A stretch of 36,638 nt of DNA from a virus. The notes under the pieces are model-generated. The model was not told the origin of the DNA and did no database searches. It saw nothing but the letters and a program-made list of their open reading frames with translations. Within the stretch, counting starts at the first letter, position 1. The number at the start of each line of letters is the position of its first letter. A program made the translations under genes and the position numbers. Below are positions 7,211 through 21,002 of the stretch, piece by piece. The stretch spans positions 1-36,638 of IMG/VR virus record IMGVR_UViG_3300045988_010186; one strand, 5' to 3'.

Positions 7211-8484
7211 TTAACTCAAAATGGATTGATATTTTTCTACCGTGCTGTTCTTTCTCCACAGCCGCCGCACCTGACTTGCCACGCTGTCGGGCGCATCATC
7301 GTGCTCCGCGTTCTCGTTGTAATCGCAAATCTGGTCGATAAATTCTTTATCAGTCCCGCTGACGAAATAAACGTTGTTCCATTCAGCTTTCAGATACGAC
7401 GTGATTTTCAAAAACTTATTCATGTTTTCATGATAAGTTACCGCTCGTTCACCACGCTTGCGCAGTTCTTTCGCCAAATATCCTTTATCGCCATTATCTT
7501 CGCAGTAGATTTTACCAGCATTAAAACTTTTCCGCAAGGCCTGTATCTCGTCGAGACAGTCATCCACGTGTTTACGCCACAAGCGCCCGTAAAAATAGTA
7601 ATTGCCATCGCGCTTTGACACGATGGTAAATGCGGTATAATCCTCTCCGCCGTATGCAGCATCGATGTGGCAATCCCCCTGTTCAACCAGCGCGGGGTCA
7701 CAATCAGTGCGCGGGTTGTCAAAGATAACATCCTCCGAGGCAATGTGACGAAGCTCATAGTTTGCCGCAAAGAGTGAAGCGGTCATTTTTTCTCGGATTT
7801 CCGCTATTTCCGCGTCGGTCATCAAACCAGTGGAATAGCAGTCATATTTCTCCGGGTTTGGCATTAGCGAAAATGCATCGGACTGATGCCAAGGCGTGCC
7901 AGTGTTGAATATTCTCCCGCCACGGTTGATGATGTTCCGCAGTTCTTGATAAATCAGCTTCGTTCGGTCGCGTTCAGCCTTTGAAATGCGGTCTTGCACA
8001 TTGACAATATCATCAGTAAAAATCCGGTCAAAGTGTTTGCCGGTTAGAGAACCGCCCATGCCAAGCCCAACAAGCTGAGATGTGCCGCGAATATCTGTTG
8101 GCAGGTTGGTGCTTATCTCGTTTGCCGTTGCCGTTGTCAGTCTCAAATCACAGCCATAAATGCACTGGACAAAATACCGCATCTGCTGGCTTTGTAGGAT
8201 TTTCTTGACCTGTGAAATGACCTCTTTTATATCGTTGTCTGTCTTCCTCATAAACAGCGTTTTGCAGTTTGGAAGCAATACCATAATCAGAGACAGGGCG
8301 ATAGAAACACAAGTTGTCTTGTAGGAACCTAACCACGGTGAGCCTGCAACGTTTTATCCTCTTTTCCTCTAACCATATCAATAATCCAGCCGTTGTGCAA
8401 TTCCGTCAGCCTTGTAAAGCCGACAATATGACCGAATTTATATGGGCTGTTCAAAAGGAAATCAACTGCATCTTTTCTCACCAT
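7211..8484 (-). CDS. terL: Terminase large subunit, interrupted by a -1 frame change at ~8329-8335
   Basis: A 51-codon N-terminal ORF (8484..8329, MVRKDAVDFLLNSPYKFGHIVGFTRLTELHNGWIIDMVRGKEDKTLQAHRG*) has a strong RBS (AGGAGG). The main body, in another frame, is open from ...PWLGSYKTTCVSIALSLIMVLLPN and continues through the 357-aa track ORF. The P-loop-like RG(L)GSYKTT spans the break. Confidence 0.8.
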
Positions 8485-8491
8485 ATTTTAA

Positions 8492-9163
8492 TCACCTCCT
8501 ATTTTTTTCTGACAAAGATTCCTCAATTCTCTTTTTAGCTATGTTAAAATATCTATCATCAAGCTCAATGCCTATGAAGCGGCGGTTAGTATTCACGCAA
8601 GCAACGCCTGTTGAACCGCTACCCATAAATCCATCAAAGACAACTTCATTTTCGCCCGAAGAATTGCAGATAAATGTTGCCAGCAAAGAAACAGGCTTTT
8701 CGGTTGGGTGGTTTTGATTTCTTGTCTTATCGGCAAAAAACACATCGTCCATTCGTTTGATGGTAAAGCACTTTCTTCCTTTGTTTCCATACAAAACAAA
8801 TTCGTGCTTTGGTGCGTAGCTTCCTTTCAAATCGCCGCTCCCGTGGTTGTTCTTTACCCAAACAATAACATTTTTTAACTTAAAATACTTTTCAAAAGTT
8901 TTCTTGAAAACATCAATGTTATGCCACGAACAAAAGCAATAAATCGCCGTGTTGTCTTTCATTATGCGGAAACATTCAGCAAAATATCCGTCAAGCCATT
9001 CAAGAGATTTGTCGCCCTTTAATTTTGCATATACTTCTTTTCTTCTATGGCTTTGAAAGCTCATTCCATACGGCGGGTCGGTCAGCACCAAATCCACCGT
9101 GCCATCGGGAATATTCTTCATCAATTCAAGACAATCACCATGCCATAATTCAATCGGATTCAC
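8492..9163 (-). CDS. DNA methyltransferase, N6-adenine/N4-cytosine class (N6_N4_Mtase, DPPY)
   Basis: Motifs LTDPPYG and C-terminal FDGFMGSGSTGVA (SAM binding). 223 aa. Confidence 0.85.
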   Translation of the reverse strand: MNPIELWHGDCLELMKNIPDGTVDLVLTDPPYGMSFQSHRRKEVYAKLKGDKSLEWLDGYFAECFRIMKDNTAIYCFCSWHNIDVFKKTFEKYFKLKNVIVWVKNNHGSGDLKGSYAPKHEFVLYGNKGRKCFTIKRMDDVFFADKTRNQNHPTEKPVSLLATFICNSSGENEVVFDGFMGSGSTGVACVNTNRRFIGIELDDRYFNIAKKRIEESLSEKNRR

Positions 9164-9512
9164 CTTTTACCATTGCCTCCACTTCGTCAATCACGCTTTT
9201 GTCCACATCTGCAACCATGACTTTATCAACCGGCTTCTGCCCTGCTGTGTCGCGCACTAGCTCCCAAGCCTTCCAATCGCCTTTGAGTGCCGCCTGAAAA
9301 GCCTTTGCCGCCATCGCTTCTGTGCCTGTCATTGTCTTGCCGTCTTTGCCTGTCAAGTCAGCATCCATCAAAACTTGCATTGCTTCACGGAGGGACTTTT
9401 TTTCTCGCCTTGCAATGCCAGAATTAATGCCACCTTTTCTTCCGTTTTCTACCGCTTGTTTACCGCTTTTGAACTGCGTTGCTTCGGCATTGGGTGGTCT
9501 TTTATTGGGCAT
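9150..9512 (-). CDS. terS: Putative terminase small subunit
   Basis: 120 aa, first gene after the late promoter and upstream of terL. It has a basic N-terminus (NGRKGGINSGIARREKK), common in small terminases. Confidence 0.55.
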   Translation of the reverse strand: MPNKRPPNAEATQFKSGKQAVENGRKGGINSGIARREKKSLREAMQVLMDADLTGKDGKTMTGTEAMAAKAFQAALKGDWKAWELVRDTAGQKPVDKVMVADVDKSVIDEVEAMVKGESD

Positions 9513-9574
9513 TTATTCACCCCCTTTTAATCGCCTATATAATTTTTCCAAATATTTCTCATAATCCCTTATAA

Positions 9575-9603
9575 ATTATATCATGTTTTCCAGGCGCAAG
9601 CAA
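9575..9603 (-). promoter_or_regulatory. Promoter with extended -10 (TTGCTT-N17-TGaTATAAT) upstream of terS
   Basis: Minus strand reads TTGCTT (9603-9598), a 17-nt spacer ending in TGA, then TATAAT (9580-9575). Confidence 0.55.
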
Positions 9604-9609
9604 CAAGAA

Positions 9610-9633
9610 GCCGCCTACCAAAAGGCAGACGGC
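9610..9633 (-). terminator. Intrinsic terminator at the end of the early operon
   Basis: On the minus strand, GCCGTCTGCC-TTTT-GGTAGGCGGC forms a 10-bp stem including G-U pairs. It is followed by TTCTTGTTGCTT. Confidence 0.55.
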
Positions 9634-9639
9634 AAAAAA

Positions 9640-9963
9640 TTATAGATTGTAAAATGCATTGTAAAGCTCGTCAGCATTTTCGAGCGTGCGATGGGATTTA
9701 TATGCCTCCGACGCTTTTTTGATTCGATCGTTCAGGGCAAGCGCGCTTCGCTTCAAAAACTCCACTTCGCTCTTATCGCTCACATAAGCGCGTGTAATCT
9801 GCCTTTTTAGCTCTACACCGGTTTTTCTGTCGATAACTCCGTTATGATACGCCTTGTAAATAATCCGCAGAGCGGTGTAAAAACAAGCGTCTGCGATGTC
9901 AAGGCCGTGCGGCATATCTTTGTCGTTCATCGCAGCACGTTCAAATGGGAATTCATTTGGCAT
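9640..9963 (-). CDS. Hypothetical protein
   Basis: Track ORF trimmed to the ATG at 9963, which is preceded by GAGGAGG (MPNEFPFERAAMNDK...). Confidence 0.6.
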   Translation of the reverse strand: MPNEFPFERAAMNDKDMPHGLDIADACFYTALRIIYKAYHNGVIDRKTGVELKRQITRAYVSDKSEVEFLKRSALALNDRIKKASEAYKSHRTLENADELYNAFYNL

Positions 9964-10048
9964 CGTCGTCCTCCTCGGCAAGATACCTTTCCAAGCAAGC
10001 ACGGCACTCGCCTATGGCTATGGCATAAGGCGCACTACCGCACTTAGC

Positions 10049-10183
10049 CTAATACTTATCGGGTTTCGGGCGCGTGAAGTCTACCGCATAGTCCAGTATG
10101 CGCTCGGCTGCCTCGTCAAGCAGCGCTCTCTTGCTCCTGCTCTGCGTCCCACGCAACGCCAGTATAAGCTCTTTATCGGTCAT
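10049..10183 (-). CDS. Hypothetical small protein (44 aa)
   Basis: Internal ATG of track ORF 10049..10330 (MTDKELILALRG...). It overlaps the stop of the upstream gene. Confidence 0.4.
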   Translation of the reverse strand: MTDKELILALRGTQSRSKRALLDEAAERILDYAVDFTRPKPDKY

Positions 10184-10661
10184 TCTCGTTACCTCCGTCC
10201 ATTCTCGCGCCCTTCGGCGGTTCCGGCAGCGGCATCCAGTGCGTGACGGCGCAGTCCACGGGATTATTGTATACGTCATCCGGCGTAAACTGCCGAGCTT
10301 CCCACCAGCCTTCGGGGACAAAGTAATCATCGTTTTCTTCGCTGTACGTCCCGTAATTGTACAACTCGTACCAGTTCCATGTGCTGTCTTGTGTCAATAC
10401 GGTTCCGTCCTCGTAAATCATAGGACAGACAAAACAGCAGCCGTTCCGAACACATACCGCCAGAACTTCGGTTTCGTTTGCTGGGAGCTTATCTTCGACG
10501 CTGATCCAGTTCATCGGCTCCTCGGCAGCGGGGAGCTTTTGTATAGCTTCCCTCGTTTCCAAAATACGGTCCCGTGTCTTGTACCCCGCAGTGCGGACAT
10601 AAACAGCCATCACTGCGTCAATGGCCGCCTGCCGTTCGATATATTCATCCATCGTCGTCAC
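10173..10661 (-). CDS. DUF551 domain protein
   Basis: Motifs WISVEDKLP and THWMPLPEPP are typical of DUF551. Confidence 0.7.
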   Translation of the reverse strand: MTTMDEYIERQAAIDAVMAVYVRTAGYKTRDRILETREAIQKLPAAEEPMNWISVEDKLPANETEVLAVCVRNGCCFVCPMIYEDGTVLTQDSTWNWYELYNYGTYSEENDDYFVPEGWWEARQFTPDDVYNNPVDCAVTHWMPLPEPPKGARMDGGNENDR

Positions 10662-10881
10662 CGTCCATTCTTACGCCATAGCTACAAAAGTCGTCATAGT
10701 TTTCTCTGTCCATGTGGAATGAGCACCATCCAAGCCGCGGCTTATTGTACGATCGGCATTGATAACAGCGCACCACCTGCGCAACGTCGGCGGCGGGAAC
10801 ATTGCGAAGCGCATTGATCGCGCTGTCATACGCGACGGGCAAAAATTCAATCGCTAAATCCCGCTCGATGTATTCAGCCAT
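10645..10881 (-). CDS. Hypothetical Cys-containing protein (78 aa)
   Basis: ATG at 10881 is preceded by GGAGG. The N-terminus MAEYIERDLAIE resembles the start of the next gene. Confidence 0.55.
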   Translation of the reverse strand: MAEYIERDLAIEFLPVAYDSAINALRNVPAADVAQVVRCYQCRSYNKPRLGWCSFHMDRENYDDFCSYGVRMDGDDDG

Positions 10882-11479
10882 CCTGCATCGCCTCCACATA
10901 ACACCAGCTTTGAGGCGGGCGGGTAAGCGGCTTAGTCAAACAGTTTTCGCACCATTCAGGTTCTCCGTTTTTCATGCAACCCCAACCGCCTTGCAGCCAT
11001 CCTCCGTGCCTTGCAACATATTCCGGCTGTCCGGCGCGGAACCTATGCTTGCACGCTTTGATTGCTGGCTTGTCCTCTACGCGGAACTTGCTCAGCTCCT
11101 GCGGATTGTCGTAGATTTTTAAGTCAAGTATGAGCCAGCCGTAGCCCATTTTCCCATTGCCGAGATAATCAATTATTTGCTTGTCTGTCATGCCAGCGAT
11201 CCGATGACTGGGGCCAGAATACTCAACACTTATTGGGATGGTCGCACAGCACATAAATTCGCCGATAACTTTGCCGCTCCAATCATCGACAGCGGCGGCG
11301 CTTGAAATCGCATCAACATAATCTTGCAAATTCATGCTTTTAACGCTGGCGCAGTAGATATAGCACTTGAACGGCGTCTCCAGTTTCGGGCGTGTCTTTC
11401 GCACCTCAATCGTCTTTTCACCGCTGGCAATCTTTTCGCACCACTTTGGGCGGATGCTCAGCATGACAGCCTTACTCAT
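10874..11479 (-). CDS. ASCH domain protein
   Basis: The N-terminus MLSIRPKWCEKIASGEKTIEVRKTRP is the classic ASCH signature. Confidence 0.7.
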   Translation of the reverse strand: MSKAVMLSIRPKWCEKIASGEKTIEVRKTRPKLETPFKCYIYCASVKSMNLQDYVDAISSAAAVDDWSGKVIGEFMCCATIPISVEYSGPSHRIAGMTDKQIIDYLGNGKMGYGWLILDLKIYDNPQELSKFRVEDKPAIKACKHRFRAGQPEYVARHGGWLQGGWGCMKNGEPEWCENCLTKPLTRPPQSWCYVEAMQDG

Positions 11480-11966
11480 CCTTCATCGCCTCCAATGCTT
11501 TCTCCGCCTCCTCGCGGGTCAGGAATACTTTCTTGCCTATGTCCGTGCCATCATTACGCAGACGATACACGCGGGCTCCGTCCGGCTTGCGATTGCACGT
11601 TGCCATACACAGATTATCCTCATCCGTGCAAACAACTCTGATGTCCGGGGCTTCAAGCTCCATTTCTCGTGGCACATTATCACGGCCAACATACCATAGC
11701 GTGTCTCCAACCTTGCACGGCAGCACCACCAGCCGTCCCGCCTTGTCGGCCTTAATCCATTCTTTAATCTTTTCAAGGCCATTCTCGTGTACCCATATTG
11801 CAAATTCTGCGGTTTCTTGCGCAAGTTTAGGTGTCAGCCCCGTGTCCTCGTAAGCCTTGAGCTTTTCCCACACCTTGCGCTGTGTGCAGCTGCCACCGTG
11901 CGGGCACGGCAGCTCCCGGCACTGCGAGATGTCGCAGAAATTGCCGTCAAACGTCAGTCTCTCCAT
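11472..11966 (-). CDS. Hypothetical protein
   Basis: Start trimmed to MERLTFDG..., which overlaps the upstream stop by 1 nt. Confidence 0.55.
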   Translation of the reverse strand: MERLTFDGNFCDISQCRELPCPHGGSCTQRKVWEKLKAYEDTGLTPKLAQETAEFAIWVHENGLEKIKEWIKADKAGRLVVLPCKVGDTLWYVGRDNVPREMELEAPDIRVVCTDEDNLCMATCNRKPDGARVYRLRNDGTDIGKKVFLTREEAEKALEAMKDE

Positions 11967-12289
11967 CACTCCACCTCCTGCATCCAGAACTTGTGGCGGC
12001 AATCGTAGCAAAAAGTCTTGGGGCACTCTGACAGAAGAGACGCTACGAGACTGCACGGCTTAATATCTATGATGCCATCAAATAATTTCGCTTCCGGCCA
12101 CTGTTCCAAAAACACGTCCTGCCGTGTCTTGCGCGGATGCTCCAGAGACCACTGCTCAACCACCGCAACGGTTTTTTTAAAAAACTCAATGGCGTTATCA
12201 CATCTATCGCCGTGATACTGACACTTTGTGCAATCGTTGATCGATTTACACATCCGTCTGAATTCGCTAAAAAATTCTGCAACGTCCAT
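11966..12289 (-). CDS. Hypothetical Cys-rich protein
   Basis: ATG at 12289 is preceded by AAAGGAGAAAAC (MDVAEFFSEFRRMCKSINDCTKCQYHGDRC...). Confidence 0.55.
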   Translation of the reverse strand: MDVAEFFSEFRRMCKSINDCTKCQYHGDRCDNAIEFFKKTVAVVEQWSLEHPRKTRQDVFLEQWPEAKLFDGIIDIKPCSLVASLLSECPKTFCYDCRHKFWMQEVE

Positions 12290-12311
12290 TGTTTTCTCCT
12301 TTCGCTTTCCG

Positions 12312-12992
12312 TTATCCCCATTGTTCTGCCATAGCCTTAGCAATTCCGGGGTATGTTTTGCTCCTGGCTTTTGCTGTACGTGGGTCATTCCACCGTAAGA
12401 TTTTTCCGTTTTCATCCGTAGCATAATTCGCAGATGCCCCTACGCTATAACCACCCGGCAGTATTTCTCCATGATTTACAACATCCGTTGGAATGAGCGG
12501 CGGGAGATTTTTAAGCCATAGGCAAGTCGTCTTTCTTGCAGGATGCCCAAACTGATACGGCTGTACGATGCAATCTGGTTTGCGGTAATGCGTTGACATA
12601 TAACCAACCGGATTCTCGACGCAAACACAAGGAATGTCCGCCTCGATAAAAGCCATAAAGAATTCAGCTGCTTCTTTTCTTGCTTTTAATCGTTCAATTG
12701 CTCTGTCTCCATATCGTTCGACGTTGAACCAGCGGTTTCCAGATACGGTAAGGTAGGTGCAGGGCGGATGTGCTATCAGCAAATCCCACTTACCAACCGC
12801 ATGAACCTGCCCGTCCATCGTAGTCACGCTCCCGCCTTTAACGGCTTCGAGAGCGTCACCAAGAATGTGCCATTCCGGGTGCCCACCGGATGGCTTTTGC
12901 ACATCGCAACTGTACGCTTCATGTCCGCGAGCACGAAACGCTTTACAAACTTCCTGCGATTCTTCGCAAGCAATAAGCACACGCATCCTCAC
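12312..12992 (-). CDS. C5-cytosine DNA methyltransferase-like protein
   Basis: Motifs AHPPCTYLTVSG (PC motif IV-like), VENPVG (ENV-like) and a C-terminal RSKTYPGIAKAMAEQW. There is no canonical FxGxG at the N-terminus. Confidence 0.55.
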   Translation of the reverse strand: MRMRVLIACEESQEVCKAFRARGHEAYSCDVQKPSGGHPEWHILGDALEAVKGGSVTTMDGQVHAVGKWDLLIAHPPCTYLTVSGNRWFNVERYGDRAIERLKARKEAAEFFMAFIEADIPCVCVENPVGYMSTHYRKPDCIVQPYQFGHPARKTTCLWLKNLPPLIPTDVVNHGEILPGGYSVGASANYATDENGKILRWNDPRTAKARSKTYPGIAKAMAEQWG

Positions 12993-13432
12993 ACCCCCGC
13001 ATCTTTCGGCTTAAAAATCACGACCATGTTCGGGAACGGCGCGCTGTTTTTGCTGCCGCCGAATTTCAGCCGCCCGCGCACGAACCGTGTCTCGACGTTC
13101 GGCCGCTCATAGATATACGTGTGGAACCATCGCGTGTCCGTCCTCGCTGGCAACAACATGACGATGGTGTTGTTATTCACGTAGTTCTCGTAGCTGGCCT
13201 TTTGCACCCACTTGCCGATCTGCCGACCGTATGGTGGGTTGCACCACACCGTGCCAGGCCAGGGCTGTTTCAGTCCATCCTGCTCTCGCGTATAGTAACA
13301 GGGGCATTTGTGGTTTTGTGCGTCCGCGGCGGCATCCAGCGTAAAGCCGAACTCCGCGTCAAGCATGTCAAAAAAGTCCTGTGGGGTCTCCCACAAATCA
13401 GTCTTGCTGGAAAACAAAACGTCTTTATTCAT
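12989..13432 (-). CDS. DNA N6-adenine methyltransferase (phage Dam family)
   Basis: Motifs DLWETPQDFF and WCNPPYG (NPPY). 147 aa. Confidence 0.8.
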   Translation of the reverse strand: MNKDVLFSSKTDLWETPQDFFDMLDAEFGFTLDAAADAQNHKCPCYYTREQDGLKQPWPGTVWCNPPYGRQIGKWVQKASYENYVNNNTIVMLLPARTDTRWFHTYIYERPNVETRFVRGRLKFGGSKNSAPFPNMVVIFKPKDAGV

Positions 13433-13434
13433 CC

Positions 13435-13707
13435 TTACATCCCCGCTTCCTGCATCGCCTGCTGCATAAACGATAGTTGCTGCCGCAGGTCGTCGATCGT
13501 GCGTTCCTGCCGCGTCATTTCGGCGGAAAACGCCAGTGCCTTGCGCCGCTCGTTGCAGAGCATGGTTTCCGCTTTCTCGCGCTGTTCATTCTCCTGCTCG
13601 GCGTAGTCGCACAGCCTGTTGACAGCGTAGCGTGCTGCCGGTGAGAAATTCAGATTACCACGATCGTGCGCCAGCAGGTCACGCACTTGTTCACAAATTC
13701 TGTTCAT
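13435..13707 (-). CDS. Hypothetical coiled-coil protein
   Basis: 90-aa ORF tightly packed within the operon. Confidence 0.5.
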   Translation of the reverse strand: MNRICEQVRDLLAHDRGNLNFSPAARYAVNRLCDYAEQENEQREKAETMLCNERRKALAFSAEMTRQERTIDDLRQQLSFMQQAMQEAGM

Positions 13708-13712
13708 GCGTC

Positions 13713-14318
13713 TTACTCCTCTCTGCGCTCATAAAACAGCGCATTGTACTGGTCGTATCGGTCTTGGATCGTGTTTGCAACCGGGTAAAAGTTCTCCCAG
13801 AATCCGCAGGGGTCTATCTCCGAACAGCCGCCGCGGTATACACAGTTTGGCACCAACACGTCGCTCAACTCCGGCTCGGTCTCGTGCAACACCGCCTTGA
13901 AATCTTCGGCGTACTGCTGGGTTTCTGGTGATGCCTGATAGCACAGCCGCTTGCGCCAAGTGTCGATCAAATTCTGCGCATTGGCCTCACCCGTGAACGT
14001 GACCGGCGTGTTCTGCGGAAGTTTCCCGCGCGGAACGCCAGTGCGGTCGCTCCTCTGCGTGCGGATGAAGCACTCCCATTTGTGCCGTGACCAGTGTGTG
14101 GCAACCCAGCTCAGAATGTCTCTCCAGCGCCAGCGCACGCGGAGGTCACGGATCGGGCTGTGCTCCGCGATAAGGATATTGCGCTTGAATTGCTCGCTCG
14201 GCTCGTGGCCGAGACTCTCCTTGCCTACGGTAGCACGGCAGTCGTCTACTACCTCGCGCCAGCTTCCTTTGACGCCAAGCAGCTCTGTCTTCGACACTTC
14301 GTTCACCTTCCCTTCCAT
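13713..14318 (-). CDS. Truncated ThyX-like protein (mini-ThyX), paralog 1
   Basis: AEHSPIRDL...ATHWSRHKWECFIRTQRSDR aligns to the ThyX H-x-S/T..E...RHR...SxRY block. NAQNLIDTWRKRLCYQASPETQQYAEDF aligns to the ThyX [25 protein letters not shown] block. Start taken at MEGKV (14318). Confidence 0.65.
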   Translation of the reverse strand: MEGKVNEVSKTELLGVKGSWREVVDDCRATVGKESLGHEPSEQFKRNILIAEHSPIRDLRVRWRWRDILSWVATHWSRHKWECFIRTQRSDRTGVPRGKLPQNTPVTFTGEANAQNLIDTWRKRLCYQASPETQQYAEDFKAVLHETEPELSDVLVPNCVYRGGCSEIDPCGFWENFYPVANTIQDRYDQYNALFYERREE

Positions 14319-14473
14319 TACGCCACCCCCAGTGCCGTGAAGATCACGTGGAACAGCCACCCGGCCAGTGCGATGCCGCCGAGAAAGCTCGCGCAGACGA
14401 TGCCGTCCTCTATGCCCCAGACGATATATTTGCGCACCTTTGCCCGTGCGCGCGGATCTCCGAATACTTTCAT
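14318..14473 (-). CDS. Small membrane protein (51 aa)
   Basis: Not in the track because it is under 60 aa. RBS AAGGAG precedes the ATG at 14473. It has a hydrophobic C-terminal segment (FLGGIALAGWLFHVIFTALGV). The TAATG overlaps the next start. Confidence 0.5.
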   Translation of the reverse strand: MKVFGDPRARAKVRKYIVWGIEDGIVCASFLGGIALAGWLFHVIFTALGVA

Positions 14474-14497
14474 TGTTGTTTCTCCTTACCGGGCGGT

Positions 14498-14671
14498 TTA
14501 GCCGCCAATCGTTTCAAGCAGCTCTTTTGCAAGGCGCTTCATTTCAGCTTTTGCGGTTTTTTGTTCATAAATGGTCTTAAAGCACATATTGCCCTGAATG
14601 TGTGCAATCTCTTTCAGAATATCCATAGCTTCTTCATTTGCCGCGATTTCAAAAATCTGTTTCTGCGTCAT
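14498..14671 (-). CDS. Hypothetical small protein (57 aa)
   Basis: First ORF after the promoter at 14721-14749. RBS AAAGGAA is present (MTQKQIFEIAANEEAMDILKEIAH...). Confidence 0.45.
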   Translation of the reverse strand: MTQKQIFEIAANEEAMDILKEIAHIQGNMCFKTIYEQKTAKAEMKRLAKELLETIGG

Positions 14672-14720: not shown

Positions 14721-14749
14721 AATATACACTATTTTATCGCGCTTGTCAA
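14721..14749 (-). promoter_or_regulatory. Promoter (TTGACA-N17-TATATT), member of a repeated promoter cassette
   Basis: Minus strand reads TTGACA (14749-14744), a 17-nt spacer, then TATATT (14726-14721), followed by ATAATCA. An A/T-rich upstream element is shared with the promoter at 24138-24166. Confidence 0.6.
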
Positions 14750-17096: not shown

Positions 17097-17152
17097 ATAA
17101 AAAAATATGGGAATACCCGCAGGCCGAAAGGTGAAAGCCTACGGGTACTCCC
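17097..17152 (-). terminator. Strong minus-strand intrinsic terminator in the leader of the replication genes
   Basis: Minus-strand RNA GGGAGUACCCGUAGGCU-loop-GGCCUGCGGGUAUUCCC forms a 17-bp stem (including G-U pairs), followed by AUAUUUUUUU. On the plus strand the G-U positions become A-C mismatches. Confidence 0.65.
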
Positions 17153-17228
17153 AAGCAGAGAAACCAACAAAAAGGAGATAAAAAAAAGAAGGGAACCACT
17201 CGTCCGCGTCGAACTCATGGACAACATT

Positions 17229-17257
17229 ATAATACTACATCGGCCGGATTACGTCAA
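17229..17257 (-). promoter_or_regulatory. Promoter (TTGACG-N17-TATTAT)
   Basis: Minus strand reads TTGACG (17257-17252), a 17-nt spacer, then TATTAT (17234-17229), followed by AAT. The geometry matches the other three promoter cassettes. Confidence 0.5.
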
Positions 17258-17266
17258 GTAGTTTTT

Positions 17267-17788
17267 TTATTTTTTTTTACATCCCCCGTTGAATTCGTGG
17301 CACGCACCGCCCTGATAGGCGCAAGATGGCACAAGTAGTCCCGTAAACTCTGGGCACACTTTCAGCACCTCACGACACATCTTTTTCACAACTTCGCGCG
17401 TTTCTGGGCTCGCCATATTGCAAAGTCGTTTGTTTGCGATGATTTGCAGCTCCTCAGCGTTGAGATACCAGATCATATCAACCGGCGCGTCCTGCGGGGC
17501 TTTCGTGCGGTCATAGTAGCTCTGCCGGTCGTTGCGCTGGCTGCGCACAAACGGTTGCGCGTGAACGTGCCTGCACAAATGCACACTTACCCAATACGGC
17601 AAATCGGTGATGCGGAAAGCAAACTGCAGCGTCCTGATCGGGCTGTGCCGCGCCTCCAAAATTTTGCTTTTCCATGCCTGCGATGGCGGCTGAACAGGGT
17701 GCTTGCCAACGGTAACAAGTGTACATTCTTTGCAAAACATCCAGTCGTCGTCTGACGGATATTTAATCAGCTCAACGTTCATCGGCAA
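17267..17788 (-). CDS. Truncated ThyX-like protein (mini-ThyX), paralog 2
   Basis: ARHSPIRTLQFAF...VSVHLCRHVHAQPFVRSQRNDR and NAEELQIIANKRLCNMASPETREVVKKM align to the same blocks as paralog 1 and to ThyX motifs. Confidence 0.6.
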   Translation of the reverse strand: MPMNVELIKYPSDDDWMFCKECTLVTVGKHPVQPPSQAWKSKILEARHSPIRTLQFAFRITDLPYWVSVHLCRHVHAQPFVRSQRNDRQSYYDRTKAPQDAPVDMIWYLNAEELQIIANKRLCNMASPETREVVKKMCREVLKVCPEFTGLLVPSCAYQGGACHEFNGGCKKK

Positions 17789-18012
17789 AACCTCTCTTCG
17801 AACGAAGGCTTTACGACATACCCAGTCAGGTCGTCAAGGCTGACGTGCAGCGCGTCTGCGATTGCAATCAGCATGTTTAGCCGTGGCGATACGAGCCCGG
17901 CCTGATACTTTGACAGCGTTGCACGGCTAATTCCGGTCACGTGCTGTAGGCGGTTAAGCGAATATCCTCTTCGCTCCCGAATCTCCCGGAAATTTTCAGT
18001 GAACGTTCCCAT
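17779..18012 (-). CDS. XRE-family helix-turn-helix regulator (77 aa)
   Basis: ATG at 18012 is preceded by GGAGGGG. The sequence NFREIRERRGYSLNRLQHVTGISRATLSKYQAG is a typical HTH_3. Confidence 0.75.
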   Translation of the reverse strand: MGTFTENFREIRERRGYSLNRLQHVTGISRATLSKYQAGLVSPRLNMLIAIADALHVSLDDLTGYVVKPSFEERFCR

Positions 18013-18508
18013 TTTTCCCCTCCAGCTTGGAAATAATCTCACGCATTCTGGGCGCGGAAACGCCCTTCTCGACGATTTTTCCGTTATTATAGATAGTATA
18101 CCCACCGTTCTCAAAAATAGCAGATACGCAAGTTTTTGCGGCTGTGGTGGTTGTTGCGGTCTGCGCCTTTTTACTTTGCATCCGCGCGGGAATGTCCATC
18201 ATCTCCGGCCGCTTCTCCTCAGTCCACGCAAGGCCGCAAAGATTCCAAATAGCGGCGATCAGATGATCTTCATCGGTTTGACCATCCATATACTTAACCA
18301 GATGCCGCATTGCGCTGTCGGCGAAACTGTGGGCAGGGATGCCCTGCTCCCAGTTCCTTTCCGCATATTTTTTTGCTCCTGCTTCGTAGTGCTTCGCAAG
18401 CCGGAGAAGAACGCACATCGGCAGCAGGTCAAATCTTCCTTTACCTTCGTGAATGTCTCTGACCGCCCCCGTACTAAATGCCGTTCTATTTCCGCTATCT
18501 TTAATCAC
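17996..18508 (-). CDS. MazZ/MazG-like dNTP pyrophosphohydrolase domain protein (dATP/dGTP diphosphohydrolase N-terminal-like)
   Basis: FSTGAVRDIHEGKGRFDLLP...LAKHYEAGAKKYAERNWEQGIP...DEDHLIAAIWNL matches my memory of this phage family. A T/A-rich linker and a ~50-aa C-terminal extension follow. Confidence 0.55.
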   Translation of the reverse strand: MIKDSGNRTAFSTGAVRDIHEGKGRFDLLPMCVLLRLAKHYEAGAKKYAERNWEQGIPAHSFADSAMRHLVKYMDGQTDEDHLIAAIWNLCGLAWTEEKRPEMMDIPARMQSKKAQTATTTTAAKTCVSAIFENGGYTIYNNGKIVEKGVSAPRMREIISKLEGKNGNVH

Positions 18509-18950: not shown

Positions 18951-19449
18951 TTTGCAATCGCTCCTTCGCTTCCCGATATAAAATATCGTGTATTAGTTTT
19001 GGTGTTGTATCTGGCTGGCAAAAAACAATATGTGCATCATATCTTGCCATCCACGCGATCAAAGACGCGATCAGGGCTTGCGGCAGCATCTTCGACCGAT
19101 ATCGTCCGGCGTATGCTTTTTCCCAGCTCGCGTTTTCGATCAGCAGATACACCCGCTCTTCTGATTGTTTCAGCCGCTCGAATTCGTTCACGAACCTCTG
19201 CCGGTTTTGGCAAAAATTCGAGCATATCTCGCTCAACGACATTTTCCGTTCAATGCAGCACGGTACGCGCCATTTTTGCTCGCCCGGAAGCACAAACATG
19301 GCAGAATAGTCACCGCTATCCAGCTTCGCGCGTGTCCACGGCACACCGAAAGCCGCCCATCTTTTGACGGCCTCCGGCGTTTCGTGTTCTCTGCTATCGA
19401 CGATTATGGTCATGGTCGATAGCGCTTTTTGCATTTCAGGTGGGTTCAT
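18940..19449 (-). CDS. ERCC4-type nuclease
   Basis: Motifs IVDSREH, SGDY and IERKMSLSE (the ERK motif). Confidence 0.7.
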   Translation of the reverse strand: MNPPEMQKALSTMTIIVDSREHETPEAVKRWAAFGVPWTRAKLDSGDYSAMFVLPGEQKWRVPCCIERKMSLSEICSNFCQNRQRFVNEFERLKQSEERVYLLIENASWEKAYAGRYRSKMLPQALIASLIAWMARYDAHIVFCQPDTTPKLIHDILYREAKERLQSEF

Positions 19450-19936
19450 TCAATGTCCCGTCGAGTTTATGGATCTCCAGAAACAGCGGGTAAAGCTCTG
19501 TCAACGTCTGATACTTGCGCTCGAAAGAATGCAGTTCTTTCATAGCCGTGTCGAGCAAGGCAGTTCTCTTTTCTGCACATGTAAGAATTTTTTGTGTGCT
19601 TTCATATCCGACCTGTTTGTCAACAGTGAAAAACGCCCTGATAGGTGTCGCATCCGGCTCTTTTTCAACCTCGTTACCGTTTTCGTCAATATCCTCGTTT
19701 TTAATCACAAGGGCGCGGATGATGTACCTCGCCTGCGATACCCGGTATTTTTCTGCCGCGATGTCGTTGTCCCACTCAAACTCGTGATGGAGCGGAGCGT
19801 CATCTGCGCGGCTCGCATCCACAAGAGCCTCGGCGGTCAAACCTCCTTTCTTTTCAAGTTCTTCGCACACCGCTCCCGCTGTCTGTGCGTCCGCTTTGAT
19901 GTGATACTTTGCTGTTTGCTTCCATTCGTAAACCAT
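19436..19936 (-). CDS. Hypothetical protein
   Basis: Start trimmed to the ATG at 19936, preceded by AAAGGAGG (MVYEWKQTAKYHIK...). Confidence 0.6.
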   Translation of the reverse strand: MVYEWKQTAKYHIKADAQTAGAVCEELEKKGGLTAEALVDASRADDAPLHHEFEWDNDIAAEKYRVSQARYIIRALVIKNEDIDENGNEVEKEPDATPIRAFFTVDKQVGYESTQKILTCAEKRTALLDTAMKELHSFERKYQTLTELYPLFLEIHKLDGTLNEPT

Positions 19937-19966
19937 TTTGTTTACCTCCTTTAATTTTTTTTGGGA

Positions 19967-20250
19967 TTGCCTGCCACGACGAGCCACGCCACGCCGCGCC
20001 CAACCAGACCTTGCCTGCCTTGCCGCACCGCGCCAAGCCTTGCCTCGCCTGCCATACCGTGCCGTACCACGCCATACCTAGCCTCGCCTGACCTTACCGC
20101 GCCTTGCCTGCCACACCAATCCTTACCGCGCCGTACCTCACCGCGCCATGCCATACCTAACCTTGCCAAACCAAACCATACCTCACCACGCCTGCCATGC
20201 CAAACCCAGCCCGGCCTTGCCATACCGCGCCTCGCCTCACCAAGCCTGCC
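19967..20250 (-). repeat. Degenerate pentanucleotide array: 58 consecutive GGY(N)N units on the minus strand (NNRCC on the plus strand)
   Basis: A gap-free hand parse gives 52 five-mers plus 6 four-mers (TGCC), totalling 284 nt. 57 of 58 units end in CC and 57 of 58 have a purine before CC. See findings. Confidence 0.9.
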
Positions 20251-20269
20251 ATGATCTATTGATCGTTAC

Positions 20270-20917
20270 TCAAGCATCAACATGGAACATACCATACTGC
20301 CCATCTCTTTCTGGACGCCATTCGCCAATCCCGCAAACATATCCGCCAGCGTTAATCATGTTTACGATGTTTTCAAGGCTGACGCTTCCGTTCGTGTTGT
20401 AGCTGATGCACAAATCAGCGTACCAGTTTCTGAACTCTCCGCGATAACGGATGTCAGCCGTGCCCATGCCGACCTTGACCATATCCTCGCGCATGATTGG
20501 CGTATCACTGTGAATCTCGATCAGGCCATTCTCGTCGCTATCGATGAAGAACATACCGCGATTTTCCATCTTGTTTTTGCTCCAACCAAGACGATATGCT
20601 GCGCTGATTGCCGCCTGTTTGATAGCAGTAACCGGGAAGCCGAACCGCGCGCCATTCTCGACGGCTTTCTGGAATCCTTCTTCGGTCGTTTCTTCCGGCA
20701 TCGGGGTAATCCAGTAAAGCGACCGGATGAAATCGTCAACCGGGTCTTTCGCTTCCTTCTTCTTGCCCTTCGCAAGCCCCATCTGTGCCTCAAGCATCAT
20801 GCGTTTTGCTTTCTCGCTCCATGCGTGGATGATGAGCGGCGTGTCACCGACAATGCGGACGTTCACCTTCTGGATTTTAATCGGCCGAATCTCGATAACC
20901 TCTGTTTTTGCTGCCAT
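20270..20917 (-). CDS. Hypothetical protein of the recombination module (215 aa)
   Basis: Long ORF with RBS AAAGGAGA. I do not recognise the family. Confidence 0.6.
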   Translation of the reverse strand: MAAKTEVIEIRPIKIQKVNVRIVGDTPLIIHAWSEKAKRMMLEAQMGLAKGKKKEAKDPVDDFIRSLYWITPMPEETTEEGFQKAVENGARFGFPVTAIKQAAISAAYRLGWSKNKMENRGMFFIDSDENGLIEIHSDTPIMREDMVKVGMGTADIRYRGEFRNWYADLCISYNTNGSVSLENIVNMINAGGYVCGIGEWRPERDGQYGMFHVDA

Positions 20918-21002
20918 TTTTATTATCTCCTTTTCACTTTATTTCGTCCCGCCTATTCTTTCCCGGGCGGGTGCGGGAGTATGTTATGGTGTTTTTCCTC
21001 GC

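Follow-up and report, generated by a model that had tools for sequence, protein, structure and literature searches.

Two diverged mini-ThyX genes in one phage genome: a compact ThyX-family protein and a paralog carried on an exchanged cassette

The virus record IMGVR_UViG_3300045988_010186 of IMG/VR (36,638 nucleotides (nt), analysed over its whole length and called the window below) carries on its minus strand two genes for shortened homologs of the thymidylate synthase ThyX, and the question raised by this locus is why one phage genome should hold both. The gene under study, B, lies at 17267..17782 (-) and encodes 171 amino acids (aa). Its paralog A (13713..14318, -; 201 aa) is most likely the first copy that was meant by a sequence-only reading of this DNA, in which a heteromer, two different substrates, or a catalytic and a regulatory subunit had been put forward as explanations. 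We find that the two-copy state is rare and lineage-specific, that it came about by mosaic cassette exchange, and that it is not a conserved paired system. We favour the view that B is an intact and seemingly expressed, compact gene of the ThyX/FDTS (flavin-dependent thymidylate synthase) superfamily whose product probably turns deoxyuridine monophosphate (dUMP) into deoxythymidine monophosphate (dTMP) as a homo-oligomer, with A acquired separately and not as its partner.

Two full-length members of a shortened ThyX subfamily

B is contained in a minus-strand open reading frame (ORF) listed at 17267..17788, the TTG at 17788 being an artefact of the listing. Translation probably starts from the ATG at 17782: a Shine-Dalgarno-like sequence (GAGAGG) precedes it, and it shares bases with the stop codon of the XRE gene upstream (ATGA). 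Genes called independently on L169, a contig of 100% identity, include the same 171-aa product, and the peptides HLCRHVHAQPFVRSQRNDR and NAEELQIIANKRLCNMASPETREVV were found in the ORF. Both proteins scored above the cut-off (24.8 bits) of the Pfam Thy1 profile (PF02511), B with 44 bits (E-value: 2.7e-11) and A with 26 bits, and the matches of both were mostly confined to the C-terminal third of the profile. Alignment of A with B by BLASTP gave 40% identity over 144 aa (E-value: 8e-30), far beyond chance. Single-sequence phmmer searches of A and B against PDB sequences returned no match, and profiles built from their homologs matched the ThyX proteins of T. maritima and T. thermophilus. When searched against PHROGs, A gave a weak match to phrog_85 (thymidylate synthase; E-value: 0.0044) and B gave none at E-value ≤ 0.01.

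AlphaFold2 (AF2) models were built on alignments of ~90 sequences, with a predicted local distance difference test score (pLDDT) of 96.0 and a predicted TM-score (pTM) of 0.89 for B, and a pLDDT of 95.5 and pTM of 0.91 for A, which has an extra C-terminal helix at residues 184-200. Foldseek matches of both models in PDB were exclusively ThyX (probability 1.0), with query TM-scores (TMq) of 0.65-0.71 for B and 0.53-0.60 for A. The ThyX core is present in both models and one flanking domain is reduced, ~50 residues (T. maritima, Tm, 92-143) being missing. These results bear out the proposal, made from the letters alone, that B is a second shortened ThyX homolog and highly diverged from the first; the two proteins are related and not chance look-alikes.

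The subfamily is large. More than 4000 clusters at 90% identity were retrieved for each paralog, and a profile searched against 1.84 billion representatives gave 2322, 1007 and 261 clusters at 50% identity with E-values ≤ 1e-3, 1e-10 and 1e-30, respectively. B-type proteins have ~172 aa and A-type proteins ~200 aa. The best 120 matches of each paralog were at least 64-66% identical to their own query, against only 40% between A and B, and from this gap we take the two to be old subfamilies rather than the outcome of a recent duplication. When species-representative genomes were scanned, the hosts were mostly gut Oscillospiraceae, Acutalibacteraceae, Lachnospiraceae and Eubacteriales, with further members in Bacteroidales, Kiritimatiellae and Lentisphaeraceae. 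The GenBank phage records matched numbered 11 and 10, with one place per record, and included Clostridium phages FA67 and FA70, Thomasclavelia phages TR-TP1 and TR-TP2, a crAss-like phage, a Bacteroides phage and bajarodcaudo virus 1. The subfamily is uncharacterised and is carried by phages and prophages of gut anaerobes. Public names are inconsistent: some phage records use “ThyX” or “FAD-dependent thymidylate synthase” (FAD, flavin adenine dinucleotide), elsewhere the product is a “hypothetical protein”, as in Clostridium phage vB_CtyS-FA67 and crAss-like phage cr116_1, and the one member in BFVD is named “Thymidylate synthase complementing protein”. Direct family members include A0A8S5SD81 of UniProt (Siphoviridae sp. 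ctnpt50, 166 aa; 61% identity, TM-score 0.87), as well as gp64 of Thomasclavelia phage TR-TP1 and the “ThyX protein” of bajarodcaudo virus 1, at 36-39% identity and with one copy in each genome.

Copy number and the exchanged cassette

To count copies, 249 related loci were surveyed with up to 10 kb on either side of the match (80 IMG/VR loci found with B, 80 IMG/VR loci found with A, 80 species-representative genomes and 9 look-ups of encoding contigs). A single copy was present in 247 of them, a count that covers at most 10 kb from each match and to that extent weakens the argument against a partnership. One exception, the Logan contig L169, has both full copies and matches the window at 100% identity over 10.9 kb; the other, L204, has a full copy and, 1.4 kb upstream of it, a 61-aa B-type fragment (8395..8577), which is likely a remnant of recombination. 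Two full copies were found, among the 249 loci, only in the window’s own lineage.

The six nearest relatives (L001-L006) are ~90% identical to the window at the nucleotide level over most of the region. In all of them B is present (95-97% aa identity) together with the same MazZ-like and XRE neighbours, and A is absent. Comparison of L002 and L003 with the window by blastn delimited a swapped cassette at 13650..14315 (-) that has no counterpart in these relatives: the backbone homology of L002 ends at window position 14316, two bases from the ATG of A, and resumes at 13649. The gap in L002 holds a 558-aa C5 cytosine DNA methylase (PF00145, E-value: 4.3e-32; L002 13416..15092), and in L003 this methylase is split into ORFs of 364 and 134 aa (13063..14610). 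A C5 methylase of ~545-558 aa also lies in or beside the A slot of other related phages (L086 3591..5225 and L108 11039..12673); it has an FxGxG-like motif at its C-terminus and looks circularly permuted.

Genes 84-91% identical to A occur in phages with different replication modules (Rad52/SSB or PolA/SNF2), where they are followed by the same two genes as in the window, a 90-aa ORF (window 13435..13707, -) and a Dam methyltransferase (12989..13432, -; Pfam Dam, E-value: 3.7e-33), in an order that is kept in L081 and L082. Together A, the 90-aa ORF and Dam form a block of ~1.3 kb, and window positions 14291..12984 are ~90% identical at the nucleotide level in L081 and L094. From the cassette boundaries and from a block shared with unrelated phages we conclude that A is a mosaic cassette in a methylase island. 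A, a member of a different deep subfamily, entered the lineage by mosaic exchange at the slot that the C5 methylase occupies in the nearest relatives. An assembly chimera is an unlikely cause of the double copy, since backbone homology is found on both flanks of the cassette. The exact A protein was also present on ~8 contigs, including the 10.9-kb Logan contig with both copies, although these contigs may share the window’s source.

Several further features were observed around A. The methylase island spans window positions 8492..13432 (-), from an N6/N4 methylase (8492..9163) to Dam, and also holds a 226-aa ORF with a PPC motif and no Pfam match (12312..12992) and ASCH-like and DUF551 proteins. 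Directly upstream of A is a small ORF for a hydrophobic protein of 51 aa (14318..14473, -), the stop codon of which overlaps the start of A; it recurs at 82-92% nucleotide identity at other places in further A-carrying phages (L081 6639..6796) as another mobile mini-module. A DUF6378 protein is encoded within 5 kb of A-type genes in 26 of 88 loci, and in 13 loci it lies directly upstream of the A-type gene and overlaps it (L083 9556..10011 and 12 others). DUF6378 was considered as a MazZ-like homolog and rejected, with no support from BLASTP or from hhalign of locus-derived alignments (probability 12%).

Comparison with close relatives gave dN/dS ratios of 0.03-0.05 for B and 0.10-0.19 for A, that is, purifying selection on both, and each protein carries all 5 invariant and 16 near-invariant residues of the family. 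From these conserved residues and the low dN/dS neither copy looks decaying or non-catalytic. That one copy might be a decaying pseudogene left by duplication or recombination is effectively refuted: the L204 fragment shows that remnants do occur, but both genes of the window are of full length for their subfamily (171 against ~172 aa for B; 201 against ~198-205 aa for A), and their models reach a pLDDT of ~96.

The sequence-only reading had placed the two genes in one operon. They do lie on the same strand, both within the early/replication region, but co-transcription appears doubtful, because RNA folding predicts an intrinsic-terminator-like element between them, an 18-bp hairpin with a U-run at 17097..17153 (-), between B and the CHC2 primase gene. 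The spacer between B and the primase (194 nt, of which 182 nt were folded) gives -53 kcal/mol (z = -3.7), and 0 of 200 shuffles reach a fold as stable. A consensus scan also found a promoter-like site (TTGACA-17-TATATT, 14721..14749, -; 11/12 matches) in the 390-nt gap upstream of A and ahead of two small ORFs; it is weak evidence, as the count of promoter-like sites in the region was not above that in shuffles. Another promoter-like site (TTGACG-17-TATTAT, 17257..17229) lies just upstream of the hairpin at 17097..17153, and the two could together act as a regulated leader for the primase and VapE genes.

A hetero-oligomer of A and B, or a pair in which one protein is a regulatory, non-catalytic subunit of the other, is physically conceivable: in the ThyX tetramer, three subunits together form an active site (PMC6514825), and mixed tetramers could arise if both genes were expressed in one cell. 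We nonetheless regard it as highly improbable, given the single copy in nearly all loci, the lack of A in the nearest relatives, the presence of A-type genes in phages without B, the full set of 21 conserved residues in both copies, and the terminator-like hairpin and separate promoter-like site between the genes. The co-occurrence survey and the intact residue sets thus leave little of the earlier suggestion of a heteromer or regulatory subunit. A and B are probably redundant or differently timed and not the two subunits of one system.

Active-site residues and the probable reaction

Residues of the canonical enzyme (T. maritima TM0449, PDB 1O26, PF02511; Tm numbering) were mapped onto the subfamily through hidden Markov model (HMM) alignments, and columns were counted over 89 diverse members. 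Mini-ThyX keeps the equivalents of H53 (H46 in B, 88/89), R78 (R71, 82/89), H79 (H72, 87/89), S88 (S/T81, 89/89), R90 (R83, 88/89), R147 (R92, 84/89), N163 (N108, 86/89) and R174 (R119, 89/89), and at T55, the equivalent of S71 in the Mycobacterium tuberculosis (Mtb) enzyme, it has Ser (S47 in B; 86 S and 3 T among the 89). In ThyX, dUMP is held by the first Arg of the RHR motif, S88, R90 and R174, and R174 also activates dUMP (PMC6514825, PMC8316439). The set that binds or activates dUMP (Tm R78, S88, R90, R147 and R174) has equivalents in A, in B and in 82-89 of the 89 members. The motif RHR(X)7S itself is not matched, the sequence being RHV(X)7S-x-R in B and RHK(X)6T-x-R in A, with R, H and S/T kept; the third residue of RHR is therefore V in B and K in A, as had been read from the letters. 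The loop after RH is VHAQPF in B and KWECF in A. In A the K follows RH directly, and since this loop is one residue shorter the alignment puts W in the R80 column.

These positions bear on the proposal that A and B act on different pyrimidine nucleotides (e.g. dUMP to dTMP in one case and methylation of dCMP or UMP in the other), with an effect on the nucleotide pool or DNA composition. There is a precedent for such a shift in PolB of Streptomyces polyoxin biosynthesis, a ThyX paralog and C5-methylase of UMP and dUMP that is likewise a second ThyX-family gene per genome (PMC5003785, PMC5954106); it belongs to a secondary-metabolite cluster, whereas here both copies are of the shortened type with four conserved Cys (Cys4). 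The low identity of A and B, their different loops, the position of A in the slot of the relatives’ C5 methylase and within a methylase island, and a MazZ-like nucleoside triphosphate (NTP) pyrophosphohydrolase close by all fit two substrates. However, the only difference between A and B at positions aligned to base- or phosphate-contacting residues is S versus T at S88, both being about equally common in the family; the equivalent of the uracil-activating R174 is invariant (89/89); L086 has both an A-type gene and the C5 methylase, so that these are not simple alternatives; and the window has neither a dedicated kinase nor a dCTPase-specific signature. No aligned active-site position points to two substrates, and we consider this explanation unlikely.

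Conversion of dUMP to dTMP is the most likely reaction, because the dUMP pocket is retained and because members in larger phages lie near genes for ribonucleotide reductase (RNR), dUTPase, thioredoxin and nucleoside monophosphate (NMP) kinase. In P0378 (L250 8001..9107), a gene of 368 aa, a guanylate-kinase-like NMP kinase is fused to mini-ThyX, and the same contig encodes a split NrdD, NrdG, dUTPase, glutaredoxin and a PemK-like toxin. The member of Thomasclavelia phage TR-TP1 lies near the small subunit of anaerobic RNR and an NTP pyrophosphohydrolase that resembles dUTPase in structure, and that of bajarodcaudo virus 1 follows a TRX gene and is near dUTPase and anaerobic RNR. In 19 of 88 other loci, a MazZ-like gene was found at a distance of 1.2-4.4 kb from the A-type gene. 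HNH homing endonucleases, typical companions of phage nucleotide-metabolism genes, directly adjoin several family members. N-terminal fusions of ~170-230 aa were considered as a clue to the chemistry, but proved to be HNH homing endonucleases and were uninformative. Clustering of the neighbours of L010-L080, which represent one phage group, gave no nucleotide-metabolism neighbours and was likewise uninformative for function.

A number of observations weigh against a thymidylate synthase. At the R80 position the 89 members have V, I, H, W, F or L (V in B); R165, which binds the FAD phosphate from the neighbouring subunit, is replaced by Q or E; the lid over uracil C5 and flavin N5, Y91, is lost (N in B, S in A and N/D/S/T/E family-wide); and E58 has become a near-invariant Arg. 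The FAD site therefore keeps the equivalents of H79, S/T55 and N163 and loses R80 and R165. The linker from S-x-R to the R147 equivalent has ~8 residues against ~56 in T. maritima, so that ~50 residues of one helical domain (Tm 92-143) are deleted. With R80, R165, Y91 and these residues missing, the protein could differ in how it binds FAD and even in whether it acts as a thymidylate synthase. In temperate phages of ~36-40 kb, moreover, the gene lies among DNA methylases and replication genes and not among genes of dNTP synthesis, and a literature search found no paper that characterises the mini-ThyX subfamily and no biochemical data for any member.

The same losses could mean that the protein is not a thymidylate synthase at all, but a ThyX-fold protein whose nucleotide pocket is reused, for example for flavin-independent or Fe-S chemistry, for modification of DNA or RNA, or for sequestration of dUMP or dTMP as a counter-defence. 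The weak scores against Pfam (26-44 bits) and PHROGs, the DNA methylase neighbours in small temperate phages, the invariant Cys4 and the new near-invariant residues (among them R50, D85, R86, Q97 and E163, beside W14 and T24) also agree with a changed function. Against this stand the complete dUMP-binding set of Arg and Ser/Thr residues, H53, H79 and N163 of the flavin/folate site, and the RNR, dUTPase, TRX and NMP kinase genes that are repeatedly close by, and such a change of function seems to us improbable.

The Cys residues are a gain relative to canonical ThyX. Four Cys are absolutely invariant in the family (C121, C154, C161 and C168 in B; C-x32-C-x6-C-x6-C), A has the same four with the last two spacings x5, and none of the four has a Cys counterpart in the aligned T. 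maritima sequence. Judged from this pattern, the four Cys likely form a structural Zn site or an Fe-S cluster site. As a long shot, Cys4 mini-ThyX proteins (~170-200 aa) might form a class of their own, minimal enzymes akin to thymidylate synthase and confined to phages of strict anaerobes, in which the Cys would hold an Fe-S cluster or act as a relay reducible by thioredoxin that replaces the part of the enzyme that serves NADPH and FAD-AMP, and the two copies in the window might then differ in reductant or substrate. Such a cluster or relay would explain the loss of R80, R165 and Y91 together with the recurring thioredoxin and glutaredoxin neighbours.

For the favoured reading, in which B is a compact thymidylate synthase, the following mechanism is proposed. 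B would consist of the ThyX alpha/beta core without ~50 residues of the helical domain and with the family-specific four-Cys site, and would carry out the flavin-dependent methylation of dUMP to dTMP as a homo-oligomer and at the level of the nucleotide pool. Its dNMP substrate may come from the MazZ-like pyrophosphohydrolase, whose gene lies upstream and is translationally coupled. Considering the loss of the FAD-phosphate arginines and of the Tyr lid, the deleted segment and the Cys4 site, the cofactor (FAD, FMN or another) or the reductant may not be that of canonical ThyX. The canonical enzyme is a homotetramer that forms dTMP with methylenetetrahydrofolate (CH2H4folate) and NADPH; mini-ThyX is known here from its sequence and predicted fold.

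Gene order around B and the meaning of the pair

B is the last in a run of overlapping genes (ERCC4, HTH, MazZ-like, XRE, B). As the sequence-only reading had recognised, it is preceded by an XRE-family regulator and a MazZ-like pyrophosphohydrolase. The former is a helix-turn-helix (HTH) protein of 77 aa (17779..18012, -; Pfam HTH_3, PF01381, E-value: 1.4e-12; also called with 77 aa on L169), the stop codon of which overlaps the start of B and the start of which overlaps the end of the MazZ-like gene. The latter is an all-alpha NTP pyrophosphohydrolase of 170 aa (17996..18508, -; Pfam dGTP_diPhyd_N, PF18909, E-value: 8.6e-22; PHROG 801, dATP/dGTP pyrophosphohydrolase). A PF18909 MazZ-type gene two genes upstream of B is also the point that the locus has in common with the Z-genome module (PurZ, MazZ and DatZ; S-2L/phiVC8-type), but in the window the partner of the MazZ-like gene is a ThyX-like gene, and no match to PurZ (adenylosuccinate synthetase) was found among the scanned minus-strand ORFs of at least 300 aa in the window.

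The remainder of the window is a siphovirus-like genome with genes for portal, terminase, MuF, tail tape-measure, tail endopeptidase and amidase proteins, and it also encodes a VapE/CHC2 primase module and several DNA methylases. The relatives L001-L006, ~90% identical otherwise, lack a segment of 1.55 kb (19449..21002), which holds two ORFs (19436..19987 and 20270..20917) and, at 20021..20237, a degenerate repeat tract with a periodicity of 5 nt that might serve as an origin, as iterons or as a packaging site.

The ThyX enzyme has been studied well and is a target for antibacterials, and its mini version is highly abundant among gut phage metagenomes. That one genome has two copies is a side effect of mosaic cassette exchange rather than a sign of a new two-component system, which makes the pair less important. 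A and B do, however, provide a natural pair for side-by-side biochemical comparison, and a naturally minimised ThyX would define the minimal catalytic core of the enzyme and might reveal a new route of flavin reduction in anaerobes.

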